NCBI GenBank assembly: GCA_029856045.1
Contig: JAHQWG010000041.1
Coordinates: forward strand, 1-21,737
Length of the DNA stretch: 21,737 bases
From: Promethearchaeia archaeon
Lineage (GTDB): Archaea > Asgardarchaeota > Lokiarchaeia > Sigyniarchaeales > SOKP01
Reading direction: 5' to 3'
Position numbers and translations under genes: made by a program. Positions 13,026 to 19,776 of this stretch are shown in pieces. The notes beneath the pieces were generated by a model. It saw only the letters and a list, made by a program, of their open reading frames with translations, was not told the DNA's origin and ran no database searches. Within the stretch, counting starts at the first letter, position 1. Each line of letters opens with the position of its first letter.

Positions 13026-13928
13026 TTAAAAAAAATATGTAAAAAATATTGAATAAAGGGAAGGAAATTGAATAAATGGGATAAAATGAATGAGACTTAA
13101 TAAATAATACATAAAAAGTGCCCCAATTGTGAGAATAAAAATAATATCCTTCTTTTTAAAAGGAATTTCTATTAGATTTGTTCGAGTTTTGTATAAACCA
13201 AAACATCTATTTTCCATTGATATGGATGTGATATCTCCTTTTCTTAATATTGAGACCAGAATTGTGATGAGCCTTTCTTTTATAAAATTATAAGCTTTTT
13301 TAACTGTATTAGCCTTTTCCCTCCCAAATCCTCTAGCTCTTTGAGCAAGTCCAATTGTTCTTGCTTCTTGTTGGATTAGGGGGATATATTTAAGTCCAAC
13401 CATAAAAGCAAAACTATATTTATAGGAGACCCCGGTTTTCATCAATGCATAGACAAAATCCTTCATGGAAGTTGTATGGGTAAAAATTATTGCAGATAAG
13501 AATAAGATAAGGATCCATAATGCGTTTCTTAATGCATAGTAAACGGCCAATCTTCTAATCGGTAAAAAAGTAAGATTAAATAAATAGAATAAGATTTGAG
13601 ATTCTTCATTGGGGATTGCGTTAAAGAAGATATTTAAGATTATAGAAAAGAGACTTAATATTAGAATCCATTTAAATTTATAAAAAAGAGATTTAATTGA
13701 CATTTTGCTTGACAGCGCTAAAAAAAAGGTTAATAAAAAAACGATTGAAAGAAAAGTCAGACTCTCGATTGAGAATACAAAAATCGTAAATAATATCAAG
13801 AAAAACAATTTGCTTATGGGATTTAATTTATGCAAGAAAGAATTATTTGGAACATAGGAAAAGAAATCCCTTGTCTTATCTAAATTGAATTGTTTCCTTT
13901 TAATTTTTTGTTTTTTGTATTTAGTCAT
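13026..13928 (-). CDS. ecfT: ECF transporter transmembrane T component
   Basis: SFLHKLNPISKL, TT..DFVYAL, KYIPLIQQEARTIGLAQRARG and SMENRCF (the two ARG-like coupling motifs). Confidence 0.92.
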   Translation of the reverse strand: MTKYKKQKIKRKQFNLDKTRDFFSYVPNNSFLHKLNPISKLFFLILFTIFVFSIESLTFLSIVFLLTFFLALSSKMSIKSLFYKFKWILILSLFSIILNIFFNAIPNEESQILFYLFNLTFLPIRRLAVYYALRNALWILILFLSAIIFTHTTSMKDFVYALMKTGVSYKYSFAFMVGLKYIPLIQQEARTIGLAQRARGFGREKANTVKKAYNFIKERLITILVSILRKGDITSISMENRCFGLYKTRTNLIEIPFKKKDIIFILTIGALFMYYLLSLIHFIPFIQFPSLYSIFFTYFF

Positions 13929-13934
13929 ATCTTT

Positions 13935-15626
13935 TTAGATTTTACCTAACTTTTTATTTATAATATTTAATAAAGAAATTGGCCCTAAACTTTGGTATTT
14001 TTGGAAGTATGAATAATTTTCTTCATATTCTATTAAATTACCGTTATCTAACTCAATTATTTTATCCACATGATTTAGAAGTAAATGATAATCATGTGAA
14101 GATATAATAATTGTTTTGCCTTTTTGCTGCTCCTGATAAAGTATATTAATTAATTCATCTATTGTTTTTTGATCTTGACCTATGAATGGCTCATCTAATA
14201 AAATAATTTCAGGATCATAAATAAAAATTGAAGATAAGTTTAACCTTCTTTTCTGACCCCAACTAAGGTTAAATGGATTTCGATCATATTCAACATTTCC
14301 AACCATTCTCATTAATTGATTTAAATTCTCTTCATCAAATTGATTTAGGAGATTAAAATTTTTTGGGGCATATAGAATTTCATCTCTTATTGTATTTTTA
14401 AATAGCATATTTTCGGGATTTTGAAATATGAATCCTATCTTTTCAGCATATTCATAAAAATCAATTTCCAAAAGATTTCTTCCTTTATAATATACTTTCC
14501 CCTTAGATGGATTATATAATCCAGCTAATAGGTAAAGTAATGTTGTCTTCCCGCAACCATTATGACCAACTAATCCAATAAAATCTCCTTTATAGATTTT
14601 TAATGAAATATTGTTTAAAGCCATTCTATTAAGTTTAGGGTATTTAAATGAGGCATTCTTAAGTTCTAAAAGAATCTCACCTTCCATTCCGTCAGAATAT
14701 TCTTTATGGTTCATAAAATTTTCATAGAGTCTATTTTTCAATAATTCCAGATTCCTATTCGTTTCTTTATTAATTATTTCAATAGCAGTATCAAAAAACA
14801 ACGGAATTTCACGTTTTGGTGTTTCCAAGGCAGAAATAAAAAGATCTGGAATCCAAGGGATTCTTAGATTACAAGATTTTAAATCATTGAAGTGGTTTCG
14901 AAATAGATTATTAATTGAACCTTTAAGTGCAATTTCTCCATTATGATTTAATACTAACAAATAATCAGCAATATCTAATACCTTAGATAATCTATGCTCA
15001 ACAATTATTATAGATAAATCCAATTCTTTATCTTGATAGAGCTTTTTTAATCGATTCAATAATAAAGTGGAAGATTTTTGGTCCAAAAAGGCAAATGGTT
15101 CATCTAAAATTAAAATTTTAGGTTTCATTACCAAGTAGGAACAGATTACAACGATTTGCTTCTCTCCTCCACTTAAATCATCAATATCTCGATCAATTAA
15201 ATGCTCAATATTCATAAACTCTACTATATCATCTACTCTTTCGATTATTTCCTCCTTCGGAAGATTTAAATTCTCTAATCCAAATGAGATTTCATCTCTT
15301 ACAGTAAATGTCACTAATTGTTCATCTGGGTTTTGTTTAACTAATCCCACTTTTTTTGATAATTCAGCTAAACTTTGATCCCAAACACTTAAACCGAAAA
15401 CTTTTACATCTCCCTTCATATATCCAATTTGTCTAAAAGGAATAATTCCATTTAGAGCATTGCATATCGTGGATTTTCCACTTCCACTACTCCCCGCAAG
15501 AATTAGAGTTTTTCCTTTTTCTAGTTTAAAAGAAATATTTTTTACTGCAGGTCTAACATGATTATCATTTCCATATATAAACGTAAATCCATCAAATTCC
15601 AAGGCAAAATTGTTTTGTTTGTACAT
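13935..15626 (-). CDS. ecfA: ECF transporter fused double ATPase (A-A')
   Basis: GSSGSGKST / QNPDEQ / LSGGEKQ / LDEP / EH and GHNGCGKTT / FQNPE / LSWGQKRR / LDEP / SH. Confidence 0.93.
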   Translation of the reverse strand: MYKQNNFALEFDGFTFIYGNDNHVRPAVKNISFKLEKGKTLILAGSSGSGKSTICNALNGIIPFRQIGYMKGDVKVFGLSVWDQSLAELSKKVGLVKQNPDEQLVTFTVRDEISFGLENLNLPKEEIIERVDDIVEFMNIEHLIDRDIDDLSGGEKQIVVICSYLVMKPKILILDEPFAFLDQKSSTLLLNRLKKLYQDKELDLSIIIVEHRLSKVLDIADYLLVLNHNGEIALKGSINNLFRNHFNDLKSCNLRIPWIPDLFISALETPKREIPLFFDTAIEIINKETNRNLELLKNRLYENFMNHKEYSDGMEGEILLELKNASFKYPKLNRMALNNISLKIYKGDFIGLVGHNGCGKTTLLYLLAGLYNPSKGKVYYKGRNLLEIDFYEYAEKIGFIFQNPENMLFKNTIRDEILYAPKNFNLLNQFDEENLNQLMRMVGNVEYDRNPFNLSWGQKRRLNLSSIFIYDPEIILLDEPFIGQDQKTIDELINILYQEQQKGKTIIISSHDYHLLLNHVDKIIELDNGNLIEYEENYSYFQKYQSLGPISLLNIINKKLGKI

Positions 15627-15642
15627 ATCTCTTTCAAAATTG

Positions 15643-16320
15643 TTAACTTTTATCTAAATTTGTAATCTCATTTGTTTTTACAGTAAAAATGGCTTGAGCT
15701 GCAATAGGTACACCTGCTTTTATTAAGTAGTTTTTAATAACTTTCCCTAATAAACCAGCTATAAACACACCTGATAAAAATGCAAAAATCATTGCTAATA
15801 TGAATAAAGATATATGAAGAGTAAATAATTTTCCCGAAATATACCAAAAAACGGGAACTTGAGTTATATTTCCAATTCCACCTGCAATCCCCCAACCTAA
15901 TTTTGAATCTCCTTCATTAAGGTGTTCCATAATAAAGAAACCTACAAGTAATGAAGCACCTTCTAATAAATTTATTCCTATAATAATAATTCCATAAGAA
16001 CCAGTTATGAGAAATTCGAGTATTCCTTTTGTAAACATAGAGATAAGAATCCCAGGTTTATTTCTTGTTAAACCATAAAAAATCGCAACCCAAATAATAT
16101 GATGTGCAGATGCTAATTGTGTTCCGCCCGTAAGAGGGTACCACACTTTTATTAATAAATCAAAGGGTATAACACTTGAAATGATTCCTCCAAGAGTCCC
16201 AAAAATTGTTGCATAAAGTAAAGTTCTAATTGAAATTCCAAATCTGCTTTTTTCAATTTCTAAATTTTCTACTCCAGTCCTTTTAAATTCTTCTTTTGTG
16301 TCTTCAAGATTTTTTTCCAT
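15643..16320 (-). CDS. ECF transporter S component (dedicated, group I; YkoE-like fold)
   Basis: About 6 TM helices with the pattern HHIIW..., KPG..., KGILE..., G...LLEG; adjacent to ecfA and ecfT. Confidence 0.75.
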   Translation of the reverse strand: MEKNLEDTKEEFKRTGVENLEIEKSRFGISIRTLLYATIFGTLGGIISSVIPFDLLIKVWYPLTGGTQLASAHHIIWVAIFYGLTRNKPGILISMFTKGILEFLITGSYGIIIIGINLLEGASLLVGFFIMEHLNEGDSKLGWGIAGGIGNITQVPVFWYISGKLFTLHISLFILAMIFAFLSGVFIAGLLGKVIKNYLIKAGVPIAAQAIFTVKTNEITNLDKS

Positions 16321-16341
16321 AGAGCAAAATCACCATTAATT

Positions 16342-16914
16342 TTAATATACCCTAATTGCAACTGTATGTTTTGCAGTATATATGGTATTCCAATCTGGAA
16401 ATAAACTTCTATTCACTATTCCTTCTATCGGACCTCTATCCGGTTCCCCTCCCATGGGCATCCCGTTCCTCTCATAAGCTAGCAAAACCAATTCAGGATT
16501 TTGTTCAACTACCGAAAAGAGGATATTTCTACTAACATATAAATCGCTCGCTTCAAATCGAAATCTTGTGGAATTGGGATTTAAGCAATTTTCTTTATTA
16601 AAAATGTCCCATATAACCGCCCCAGAATAATTATCAACCCAAGTATTCCCAAAATCATTAATAAAATAAAATCTATGATTTATTACTTGTTGATAATTGG
16701 ATTTTAACTGAGTTAATGTGATATTGACTTCTCGTTTTACATTTCCGTATATTTTAATTGAAATTTCAGTATTACCATTTATTTGTTGTTCTATAAATTG
16801 CAAATTATAGATTGTTAGTCCAATTGATGCACTTATAACTATTCCAAATAATATAAAAATAGAAAGATTCCTTTTTGATAAAAAGTCTCTAATTTTATGT
16901 TTTGAATTATTCAT
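16342..16914 (-). CDS. Membrane-anchored molybdopterin-oxidoreductase (sulfite oxidase/MsrP-like) fold protein
   Basis: N-terminal TM; IKIYGNV..ITLTQL; YSGAVIWDIF; RFEASDLY; LLAYERNG; RGPIEGIV; AKHTVAIRV. Confidence 0.7.
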   Translation of the reverse strand: MNNSKHKIRDFLSKRNLSIFILFGIVISASIGLTIYNLQFIEQQINGNTEISIKIYGNVKREVNITLTQLKSNYQQVINHRFYFINDFGNTWVDNYSGAVIWDIFNKENCLNPNSTRFRFEASDLYVSRNILFSVVEQNPELVLLAYERNGMPMGGEPDRGPIEGIVNRSLFPDWNTIYTAKHTVAIRVY

Positions 16915-16925
16915 TTTGTAAATAA

Positions 16926-17840
16926 TTATCTATTATTCTTTATTGCAATAAATTTCCTTTTCCAAATTATAATTAATCCAGTTAAAAAAATCATAATAAA
17001 TAAAGTGAAACCTAATTGATAACCTGAAATAATAAGAGCTGGAAATTCAGAAAAATGTAAAGCATAAATCCACGATATTGCGTGATCTTCACCTTCTCCT
17101 GTACCATATTCATTATCCAATATAGCGATTGTAAATTCATATATCGTCTTTTCTTCGAATTGAACATCATATTGCTCACCGGTTGTTAAAGGTCGAGAAA
17201 TTTCTATTTGATAACGATTTGTATCATTAAACCAGGTTCCATAAATCATACCTGTCTCTATTTGGCTAATTTCAGAATTGTGAGGATACCAACCATCATC
17301 TCCAAAACATGTATCATAACCGTTGTATGAAGAACCATTTTCTTTTCCTATCCGATATCCCCATTGCCAAGTATCCACATCTCCTCCACCATACGGACCT
17401 GTCTTCATACCTTGGTAAAATGCCGCAGTATAATTTGACATATTTATGTTCCAACACATTGAAAATTGATCCCAATTGCTCAGTGGAGTTGAATCCTCCC
17501 AACTAGCCAAAATAAATAAGTGGGTATCACTATGAGCGAAAGATATATTAACGTATCTAATAAAAAAATTAGGAGAATAAAAATCAGCGGCAACGGGTAT
17601 CAATATAGAATTATTTTTTCCAGAAACATGCCAAAAATCTTCATTATCCTGACCATCAAGAGTAATAACCGCATTTGGGTCATAATATATATCCACATGA
17701 GTAGTATGATGATAATATTGGCAATCTCCTTTACCAGGCCACGAAGACCCTATAATTATAGGAGCAGATATAGCTTGAATTATGAGAAATATTAAGAAGA
17801 AAAAAAAAAATGGAATTAAAGTTTTTTTATGGAGCGCCAT
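16926..17840 (-). CDS. Secreted DOMON / ethylbenzene dehydrogenase gamma-like putative heme-binding protein with a Loki-CTERM-like anchor
   Basis: Signal peptide; ITLDG...EDFW; HLFILASWEDST; DQFSMCW; GM; DTWQW; EISRPLTTG..DVQF; FTIAILD; H; C-terminal ISGY + TM + KRK. Confidence 0.7.
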   Translation of the reverse strand: MALHKKTLIPFFFFFLIFLIIQAISAPIIIGSSWPGKGDCQYYHHTTHVDIYYDPNAVITLDGQDNEDFWHVSGKNNSILIPVAADFYSPNFFIRYVNISFAHSDTHLFILASWEDSTPLSNWDQFSMCWNINMSNYTAAFYQGMKTGPYGGGDVDTWQWGYRIGKENGSSYNGYDTCFGDDGWYPHNSEISQIETGMIYGTWFNDTNRYQIEISRPLTTGEQYDVQFEEKTIYEFTIAILDNEYGTGEGEDHAISWIYALHFSEFPALIISGYQLGFTLFIMIFLTGLIIIWKRKFIAIKNNR

Positions 17841-17871: not shown

Positions 17872-18978
17872 CTATATTTCAATATATATACTAGTTAACC
17901 ATTTGTTATATCCCTTCTTTAATTGCCCTGGAACTATTAACTTATAAGGACCACCATCAACGAGCTTTAAAGATGTAGGATTTCCAGAGCCCACTTTTTG
18001 ATGCTGAATCTCTGCATTCACAATCCACATTAGATTACCCTCTGGGGCATGAATTGAATCCATTGGCATCGGAAATCCAGTGCCAGGAATACAATCTCCA
18101 GTTGTTGCATTCAAAGTACAATTAACAATAGATGGTTCCACCAATCCTGATTCAATGTCTGTATTATTGTATCCTGAGCTTGGCCAAGAAAATCCGTCTA
18201 CACAATCCCATGTAATGTTATAATTTTCCAAAATATTCGCTTCTTTTGTGAAATTTTTTAAGGTCCTTCCTTTTATTGTACAATTCCAGTCAAAATATTC
18301 CGTTCCATTATCATCATACCACCAATGATATGTATTGTAATCTCCGATTCCTTCCATCATTTTATTTGTATCTATTGTGTAATTCAGAATTCCATTCACA
18401 TAAACCGGAATTACCCACTCAGATATAATCTCTATGCTTGTTACATTCATAATCGCCGTGGAGGCATTAAGATCTCCACCAAATAATGAAAAATTTCCAT
18501 AAGCAGCACCTAGCGGAGAATTTTTTAACCAATTATCATTAGCCATTATTCCAATAATTAGAGGGTTTGTTGTTTGAGGATTTTTTACCATATTTCCATC
18601 AGAATTAATCATAAACCCAACATCTGTATCCAGATTATCGGAAAAATTATGAACCTTTACACCCCAAGGAGCATGAAACCCAAAATAATTAAATAATTCT
18701 ACGACATTTACACCAGTTATATTATATCCTTGTCCAGTTGTTTCAGTATCCTCAAATTTTATTTGAGTTAAATCTCCAGATTCAATTAAATCTATTATAG
18801 TTGAAGCATTTATTGACTTCTCAGTTCCATCCCAATATTTTATTTTGAGATCTTGTAGAGGAGGGGAAGTATCAGATGTTGTCCCAATTTGCGTAATAAG
18901 CCATATTCCACCACTGACTCCAGCAATAATCACAGCAACTACTATTATACTTGTTATAATTAGATTTCTTTTCTCCAA
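17872..18978 (-). CDS. Membrane-anchored extracellular glycoprotein, probably two degenerate molybdopterin-oxidoreductase-like domains
   Basis: TTG start; N-terminal TM; ITGVNVVELF and IKGRTLKNF; DCVDGFS; GGPYKLIVPG...KWLTSIYI at the C-terminus; 14 N-x-S/T sequons counted. Confidence 0.55.
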   Translation of the reverse strand: MEKRNLIITSIIVVAVIIAGVSGGIWLITQIGTTSDTSPPLQDLKIKYWDGTEKSINASTIIDLIESGDLTQIKFEDTETTGQGYNITGVNVVELFNYFGFHAPWGVKVHNFSDNLDTDVGFMINSDGNMVKNPQTTNPLIIGIMANDNWLKNSPLGAAYGNFSLFGGDLNASTAIMNVTSIEIISEWVIPVYVNGILNYTIDTNKMMEGIGDYNTYHWWYDDNGTEYFDWNCTIKGRTLKNFTKEANILENYNITWDCVDGFSWPSSGYNNTDIESGLVEPSIVNCTLNATTGDCIPGTGFPMPMDSIHAPEGNLMWIVNAEIQHQKVGSGNPTSLKLVDGGPYKLIVPGQLKKGYNKWLTSIYIEI

Positions 18979-19001
18979 ATTTGATCAATCTCAAAGCTTT
19001 T

Positions 19002-19029
19002 ATCATTATGAAAGCTTATACATAACGAT
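19002..19029. promoter_or_regulatory. ModE-box-like palindromic operator upstream of the 18978-13026 operon
   Basis: Minus strand ATCGTTATGTA-TAAGCT-TTCATAATGAT. The outer 9-bp arms ATCGTTATG/CATAATGAT are complementary at 8 of 9 positions. Same 11-6-11 geometry as the ModE consensus ATCGnTATATA-N6-TATATAnCGAT; 23 nt upstream of the TTG start. Confidence 0.65.
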
Positions 19030-19050
19030 AATTTTTCATCAAATTTAAAG

Positions 19051-19776
19051 TTATTTTTTTAAAATATAGCTAAAGATGGGAATAAAAAGAAAATATTTGT
19101 TATTCTCTATAGCTACATTCATTTTTTTATTTTTAAAATTATGATTAGTTAAAATTTTTTTAAAAAATTTTAGTTCTTTTAATAAATTATCTTTATTCTT
19201 ACTCGAAGTCCAAGGAACACTTATACAATATCGCTCAACTATCTCGAATTTTTGAGAAAAATATTGATTCATTTTTCTCCCCACTTCAGGATCGGCTCCA
19301 TTATCTTTCAAATTTGAGATTAATGCATCTTTTAAACCTGTTTCTGGAGATTCAATAACCCCTCCATAATCGGGCTCTGCAAGTATTAATAGAATACCTT
19401 CTTTTTTTAAAATTCTATGAATTTCATTGAAACATTTTTCAAGATCCTTAATCCATAAAAATAAATAATGTGTAATAATCACTTCAAATTTCTCATCTTC
19501 GAAGTCATTATTTAAAATATCCATATATTGAAGATTTGCCTTGATGTTCTCTTGATTTAAATTGTCTTTGGCAATTTTTAAACGATGTTCATCAATATCA
19601 ATTCCATATAAATTTAGATTAAATTCTTTCCCAATTTCTTTTAGAAGTGCTCCAGTGCCACACCCAATTTCCAAAAGATTTTTCTTGGTCTCCAGATTTA
19701 TTATCTTATAAATATGACTCCTGAATTCATAAGTCCACTTTAATTGTTCGCTGAATCTTATATTCCAATCAATCAT
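19051..19776 (-). CDS. Class I SAM-dependent methyltransferase
   Basis: LLEIGCGTG, GIDID, HRILKKEG, AEPDY, GADPEVGR. Confidence 0.9.
   Translation of the reverse strand: MIDWNIRFSEQLKWTYEFRSHIYKIINLETKKNLLEIGCGTGALLKEIGKEFNLNLYGIDIDEHRLKIAKDNLNQENIKANLQYMDILNNDFEDEKFEVIITHYLFLWIKDLEKCFNEIHRILKKEGILLILAEPDYGGVIESPETGLKDALISNLKDNGADPEVGRKMNQYFSQKFEIVERYCISVPWTSSKNKDNLLKELKFFKKILTNHNFKNKKMNVAIENNKYFLFIPIFSYILKK

Follow-up and report, generated by a model that had tools for sequence, protein, structure and literature searches.

A candidate ModE-type operator heading an ECF/Mo-fold operon in an Asgard archaeon

The window analysed here is the whole of a 21.7-kb contig (C40) of a Promethearchaeia assembly, G000, which comprises 3.34 Mb in 55 contigs and has a GC content of 29.4%. 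The window DNA is present in marine-sediment and salt-marsh metagenomes, and the congeners of G000 are deposited as Promethearchaeota (Asgard) MAGs. On the minus strand of the window, a short palindromic element is followed by six co-oriented genes, of which genes two to six span 13026..17840 (Table 1). The operon combines an ECF-type transporter with surface proteins of molybdenum-enzyme fold. In the homologous operon of relative G030, two surface proteins, including the product of the first gene, pass the Pfam Oxidored_molyb cut-off. In at least 10 relatives the S component lies at most 2-3 kb from the first operon gene, on the same strand. The first gene is preceded by a Shine-Dalgarno-like stretch which presumably serves in ribosome binding; the sequence TTTGAG...ATTGAT before this gene is invariant in five congeners and resembles an anti-16S Shine-Dalgarno sequence. 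The start codon of the first gene (window 18976-18978) is TTG in four congeners and ATG in G003 (L004:323).

Table 1. Palindrome, promoter-region elements and operon genes of the window
Feature	Position	Strand	Remark
Stop of methyltransferase ORF, upstream of the spacer	19053-19051	-	
TATA-like box TTTAAATT	19042..19049	-	14 nt upstream of the operator core; putative promoter
28-bp palindrome ATCGTTATGTA-TAAGCT-TTCATAATGAT	19029..19002	-	direct sequence reading
Conserved 24-bp operator core CGTTATGT-ATAAGCTT-TCATAATG	19004-19027	-	
Left half-site CGTTATGT	19020..19027	-	perfect against the family consensus
Right half-site TCATAATG	19004..19011	-	degenerate against consensus ACATAACG
Shine-Dalgarno-like GAGATTGATC	18983..18992	-	5-14 nt upstream of TTG; putative
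First gene, 368-aa membrane-anchored surface protein	17872..18978	-	TTG start; without Pfam family
EB_dh/DOMON-like protein	16926-17840	-	
190-aa Oxidored_molyb-like protein	16342-16914	-	
225-aa membrane protein	15643-16320	-	without family; putative ECF S component
Fused double EcfA ATPase	13935-15626	-	
CbiQ/EcfT	13026-13928	-	

The two arms of the palindrome agree at 9 of 11 positions. An earlier note on this DNA had placed the palindrome in a spacer of 72 nt, 23 nt before the start codon, and reading of the sequence shows its coordinates, the spacer (19050-18979) and the gap to be correct. The conserved core within the palindrome ends 25 nt before the TTG start codon and has one mismatch to the pattern CGWTATG-N10-CATAWCG, which describes the element across the order. 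Among 28 symmetrised half-sites, the columns C, G, T, A, T and G are each found in 22-27. Relative to the consensus, the right half-site of the window has T in place of both the C of the outer CG and the A at the inner edge. This degenerate form is common to the close congeners G001, G002 and G004, and G003 has TAATAACG.

The palindrome had been called ModE-box-like, with the E. coli regulator as the reference, and this description holds for one known box and not for the other. The E. coli ModE consensus is ATCGNTATATA-N6-TATATANCGAT (modA operator; quoted in PMC545781), and the window site agrees with it at 16 of 20 positions, leaving four mismatches. Such agreement is at chance level, as G000 contains 10 sites with at most four mismatches where about 7-10 are expected; Markov simulations of order 1, 3 and 5 give 6.5-8.5 four-mismatch sites, and six of the nine other sites lie inside ORFs. 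The archaeal ModE box, in the form RTTATGT-N8-RCATAAY that was predicted by Studholme & Pau 2003 and is quoted in PMC12327845, describes the box of Methanosarcina acetivorans and is matched by the window core CGTTATGT-N8-TCATAATG at 13 of 14 positions. The window reads GTTATGT-ATAAGCTT-TCATAAT and departs from the archaeal box only where the right arm begins, with T in place of R. The archaeal core is not enriched by count in G000 either, with 2 sites at no more than one mismatch against 0.83 expected; both are intergenic and each heads a W/Mo-linked operon. The case for a real site rests on position and conservation, not on the number of matches. On sequence, the E. coli consensus is the less fitting reference and the archaeal box the real match.

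For orthologues of the 368-aa gene, the upstream DNA was compared at 14 loci, which represent four families within the order. The pattern CGWTATG-N10-CATAWCG heads the orthologous operon at all 14, with 0-3 mismatches and with no more than one in 11 of them, and it is retained where the protein identity of the orthologues has fallen to about 25-30%. The 8-10 bases at the centre and the flanks diverge among the loci, and the half-site sequence is kept. The operon of G021 opens with a different gene, and there the operator still precedes that gene. Judged by sequence, context and conservation together, the element is a predicted member of the archaeal ModE-box family.

Other copies of the element were sought with a PWM built from the sites of the orthologous transporter operons. 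In G000 the scan gives two outliers, namely the window site, which at 24.1 bits has the top score of the genome, and C38:328-351 with 22.8 bits; the third-best match, at 17.4 bits, lies inside an ORF. The C38 site, which was outside the training set, lies 107 nt upstream of an AOR operon (C38:328-4783, L092) encoding an AOR with AFOR_N and AFOR_C domains (tungsten-type), two ThiS/MoaD-like proteins and a DUF1847 protein. Of the ten AOR paralogues of G000, the remaining nine have no operator, their best PWM scores being below 0, so that only one AOR orthologue group would be under operator control. Members of this group in G005, G009, G012, G020, G023 and G024 are 76-80% identical, and all have sites.

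Across the order, 40 of 41 genomes contain one or more sites with a single mismatch or none. The pattern is matched about 83 times among the 41 genomes, compared with about 35 times for a reversed-pattern control. When intergenic sites are counted by gene context, with G000 included where it has one, the operator lies upstream of AOR in 14 genomes, of a TupA-like binding-protein gene in 9, of moaC in 4, of a WtpA-like gene in 2, and of a MOSC-moaC-moeA-tupA cluster and an ECF S-component paralogue in 1 genome each. Exact sites (0 mismatches) number at least 14 among the 41 genomes and are intergenic in every case examined; those listed adjoin AOR, transporter, cofactor-related or hydrogenase-type genes, except for G026:C6:17847, which stands before an SCP2-like gene. 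The earlier note had expected the motif both upstream of orthologous operons and before other Mo/W genes, and it is found in both places: at the 14 loci described above, at AOR in G000, and at AOR, tupA, wtpA, moaC and MOSC in the relatives. From the genes that it precedes, the operator set is best described as a putative W/Mo regulon. Its content of AOR, TupA and WtpA makes tungsten more likely than molybdenum to be the metal of the regulon. The proposal that the window operon is Mo/W-regulated is thereby supported, through the conservation of the operator and its regulon, with tungsten as the likelier of the two metals.

Some sites lie before genes of less familiar type. In G036:C56 (L036:1501-1635) two operators stand 111 nt apart before a 90-aa ORF without Pfam family, which may be a further regulon member or the product of a mis-called start. 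In G008:C24 (L104:1504-2650) an operator lies 29 nt before the gene of a 364-aa multi-pass membrane protein that may be another transporter. A perfect operator in G018:C202 (L095:928-1527) lies 151 nt before an MvhD/FlpD-like gene of 141 aa.

The position of the element relative to the promoter differs between classes of genes. In the window, the TATA-like box is the putative archaeal promoter of the ECF operon, and because it lies 14 nt before the core, transcription would be expected to start inside the left half-site, a placement typical of archaeal repressors. Among the 14 transporter promoters, most have a comparable A/T box, which precedes the operator by 4-14 nt. A promoter separate from that of the upstream genes had been proposed earlier, and the TATA-like box in the spacer agrees with it, as does the upstream neighbour, which is a different or divergent gene elsewhere. 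The transporter operators end 18-79 nt (median 35) before the start codons (n=15, G021 included), and the AOR operators end a median of 95 nt before theirs (n=15), a difference for which the Mann-Whitney test gives p = 3e-5 with start codons called by the analyst and with genomes that are related to one another. In most of six aligned AOR upstream regions, a TATA-like box follows about 20 nt downstream of the operator. An operator placed just after the TATA-like box most likely serves in repression of the ECF operon, and the position upstream of the TATA-like box at the AOR genes suggests activation.

The regulator expected by the earlier note was a ModE, and a search for such proteins gave a divided result. 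Proteins consisting of a ModE N-domain only (ModE_N), 120-150 aa in length, are encoded in 33 of 41 relatives, including the congeners G001 and G004, with E-values of 1e-8 to 1e-22; the other 8 relatives gave no ModE_N match, and a scan with a single ModE_N protein found 4 loci. A profile of six ModE_N proteins matches PDB 2ijl (E = 4e-14) and also E. coli ModE over its N-domain (1b9m, 1o7l). The expectation holds for the DNA-binding domain and not for metal binding, since the Asgard regulators give only N-domain matches and no Mop/TOBE domain. In many relatives, the Tup and Moco genes occur together with stand-alone Mop proteins. In the ECF-only genomes, defined below, no stand-alone Mop/TOBE protein was found, and TOBE matches are limited to two ORFs of about 370 aa (G001, G017), at their C-terminal ends.

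Two genomes place modE_N beside its predicted targets. In G030, modE_N and the ECF operon are transcribed in opposite directions away from a common spacer of 113 nt, which contains a perfect operator directly after a TATA-like box. The genes of G026 are arranged as mop - ... - tupA - modE_N; an operator precedes tupA, and a 19-bit site lies between tupA and modE_N. This cluster (L085, C6:9000-20000) contains a stand-alone Mop/TOBE ORF of 97 aa (C6:7831-8019), tupA and modE_N, and has the appearance of a split ModE. Autoregulation of modE_N was considered and rejected: most modE_N genes have no operator near them, and in G030 the site belongs to the divergent ECF operon as well. In G004 (L082:1652-2849) and G001 (L083), modE_N lies 52 nt downstream of a 249-aa metallo-beta-lactamase-fold (MBL-fold) gene on the same strand, and the MBL-fold protein could be a partner or a sensor. 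Directly downstream of modE_N in G004 is a 520-aa actin-like gene (L082:3015-4577), to which the paralogues in G000 are only 24-39% identical.

In the G000 assembly itself, no match to TIGR00637 (ModE N-domain) and no TOBE/Mop match was found, and tblastn and blastn searches of it for modE_N and its 5.5-kb neighbourhood gave no match. G000 is also without counterparts of the genes that neighbour modE_N elsewhere, namely a 232-aa membrane protein, the MBL-fold protein (G001, G004) and the actin-like gene (G004), and it is 0.3-0.5 Mb smaller than the high-completeness congeners G001, G002 and G004. Metagenome runs containing 0.93-0.94 of the window's words were examined by aligning their contigs to the modE_N locus of G004. 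Contigs of 3.4-3.5 kb from the probable source sample cover the MBL-modE_N stretch of G004 with 119 differences in 1,585 bases, which corresponds to about 92.5% identity, and G000 and G004 are 91.9% and 92.7% identical at two other loci. Because the identity of these contigs equals that between G000 and G004, the source population probably carries modE_N on a short unbinned contig, although a co-occurring congener could give the same result. The search for a ModE-like regulator thus gave proteins in the relatives, contigs of the probable source sample that cover the congener's locus, and no match in the assembly.

The strongest alternative accepts a real W/Mo operator and assigns it to another factor, either the single LysR-type regulator of G000 or an unrecognised one. 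The LysR-type protein (contig C44, 300 aa) contains an HTH_1 domain, a relative of the DNA-binding domain of ModE, and interrupted dyads are bound by LysR-type proteins as well. Its gene is present in G000, where modE_N was not found, and homologues occur in 35 of the 41 relatives. As the binder of the element, however, this regulator fits neither by distribution nor by neighbourhood. G030, G038 and G040 carry perfect or near-perfect operators and gave no match to the LysR protein; of these, G038 is a single-contig genome with ModE_N and 4 operators. The neighbours of the LysR gene in G000 are DsrE-like and endonuclease IV genes, not Mo/W genes, whereas modE_N adjoins the operator and the ECF operon in G030 and tupA in G026. 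The motif is, moreover, the same as that bound by M. acetivorans ModE in EMSA (PMC12327845). We consider binding by a factor other than ModE_N to be unlikely.

Much less weight is given to the view that the element is a chance AT-rich palindrome which overlaps a promoter and has no dedicated regulator. The genome counts would allow it, with E. coli-consensus matches at the chance rate and the archaeal core not significantly above its expectation. Conservation of the operator across orthologous loci nevertheless rules out chance for practical purposes: the half-sites persist at every one of the 14 loci between diverging flanks, and the exact sites examined are intergenic and all but one beside AOR, transporter, cofactor-related or hydrogenase-type genes, with the excess over the reversed-pattern control noted above. 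This reading is very improbable.

Least probable of all is an RNA element, in the form of a 5'-UTR hairpin or riboswitch-like structure or of a terminator hairpin of the methyltransferase gene: the sense-strand arms can form a stem of 10-11 bp with one G-U pair and the spacer has an MFE of -11.7 kcal/mol, but the z-score of the spacer fold is only -1.6, the Rfam search of window 18700-19300 at E <= 1 gave one chance snoRNA match and none to any other family, the Moco riboswitch included, the bases at half-site position 3 (W) fail to complement each other in 16 of 26 functional sites, pairing at positions 8-12 is limited to roughly 1/3 to 3/5 of the sites with no covariation, so that the sequence appears to be conserved rather than the pairing, and the AOR-gene operators, being upstream of a TATA-like box, would not be transcribed.

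Our preferred reading, to which we assign a probability of about 0.8, is that the element is an operator of an archaeal ModE-type regulon responsive to W/Mo status and bound by ModE_N. The protein that binds the window site, its effector and the sign of regulation are what we infer. A dimer of the small winged-helix ModE_N, having no Mop/TOBE domain, would bind the half-sites CGWTATGT and ACATAWCG. Occupancy of the operator over the transcription start would block the recruitment of RNA polymerase. The ECF/Mo-fold operon would then be repressed as long as metal or cofactor suffices and released from repression when it runs short, in the manner of E. coli modABC. The same regulator would probably activate one AOR operon from a site about 95 nt upstream of its start codon.

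The nearest known system is that of M. acetivorans, in which ModE was shown in 2025 by EMSA to need the box for binding and by CRISPRi to repress target operons; molybdate was without effect on the binding in vitro (PMC12327845). The half-site sequence and the spacing are alike, the Asgard consensus being C-GTTATGT-N8-ACATAAC-G, and the boxes of both systems are found some tens of nt ahead of the start codons of Mo/W ABC transporter and W/Mo enzyme genes. The two regulators share a homologous DNA-binding domain, and direct metal sensing is unproven in both. They differ in that M. acetivorans ModE has one Mop subdomain and the Asgard ModE_N has none. They differ also in their targets, which in the Asgard genomes are predicted to include the novel ECF/Mo-fold operon and AOR genes and in M. 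acetivorans are the alternative nitrogenases.

E. coli ModE represses Mo uptake genes and activates Moco biosynthesis (summarised in PMC12327845). It shares with the Asgard system a dyad of the form CGnTAT-N12-ATAnCG in which the third position is unconstrained, and a homologous winged-helix domain (1b9m, 1o7l). The arrangement is also alike, with an operator over the transporter promoter (repression) and one further upstream at enzyme or cofactor genes (activation), these signs being predicted for the Asgard genes. The inner positions differ, with ATG/CAT in the Asgard sites and ATA/TAT in E. coli. The two Mop domains by which E. coli ModE senses molybdate are absent from the Asgard ModE_N.

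The one-domain architecture itself is not confined to Asgard archaea, as stand-alone ModE-domain proteins are found in Desulfovibrio and Desulfotalea (PMC545781), and the 135-aa Agrobacterium protein 2ijl, which is the best solved match to the Asgard ModE_N, is of the same kind. Both groups pose the same question of how Mo or W is sensed. The predicted sites of Desulfovibrio have an unrelated consensus, CGGTCACG-N14-CGTGACCG (PMC545781). Desulfovibrio and Desulfotalea genomes keep Mop domains on other proteins, whereas the ECF-only Asgard genomes are without stand-alone Mop/TOBE proteins. What sets the Asgard system apart from the known ModE-box systems is its lineage, its Mop-less regulator and the novel ECF/Mo-fold operon as a predicted target, in genomes with no apparent capacity to synthesise the cofactor.

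The distribution of this operon bears on its role. Of the 41 genomes, 23 have a strong S-component orthologue and 14 a TupA-like protein. No genome has both, for which the random probability is 9e-8 when relatedness is ignored; the two alternate within genera g4, g6, g7 and g14. MoaC is found in 19 and MoeA in 20 of the 41 genomes, mainly together with Tup or Wtp, and 19 of the 23 ECF genomes are without both MoaC and MoeA. The mutual exclusion of ECF and TupA, together with the missing MoaC and MoeA, supports a role of the ECF operon in W/Mo supply. By gene content and operator position, the ECF system would fill the slot of the regulon that is held elsewhere by tupABC or wtpABC.

In G000, no MoaA-C, MoaC, MoaE, MoeA, ModA/WtpA-type binding protein or TOBE was found, and the only PBP_like_2 protein is PstS, beside a PhoU-like gene. 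One protein with a MoCF_biosynth domain is encoded in G000 (265-aa ORF, C47:76043-76567, L110), which might handle an imported cofactor or may be CinA-like. The missing pathway genes, taken with the Moco-fold surface proteins, favour the import of a pterin cofactor over that of tungstate. Three genomes, G018, G031 and G033, have the ECF operon together with moaC and moeA and no TupA-type or strong WtpA-type match, G018 having one weak SBP_bac_11 match. On contig C8 of G018, the ECF operon, moaC and moeA lie side by side, an arrangement that would fit metal uptake. In the literature searched, there is no description of an ECF-type tungstate or molybdate transporter.

A further proposal concerns the ECF-only genomes, by which we mean those that have AOR genes and the ECF operon and are without a Tup/Wtp/Mod transporter, the Moco pathway and stand-alone Mop/TOBE proteins. 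We put forward tentatively, and with more doubt than confidence, that in these genomes ModE_N senses a salvaged tungsten-pterin cofactor, either directly or via a partner, and reciprocally switches the importer and the client enzyme. If this were true, it would be the first prokaryotic regulatory circuit for the salvage of a W/Mo cofactor and a case of ModE sensing that is independent of Mop.

The operator represents regulatory evidence, independent of protein folds, that ties the ECF/Mo-fold operon to W/Mo supply. It raises the specific question of whether tungsten, or the finished pterin cofactor, is imported through a vitamin-type ECF transporter in some archaea. It extends the ModE regulon to Asgard archaea (Promethearchaeota) and provides a natural set of ModE proteins that are devoid of the metal-binding domain, which bears on the question of metal sensing in Methanosarcina. 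Additionally, the pattern CGWTATGT-N8-ACATAWCG is a simple marker for further W/Mo genes in uncultured Asgard genomes.
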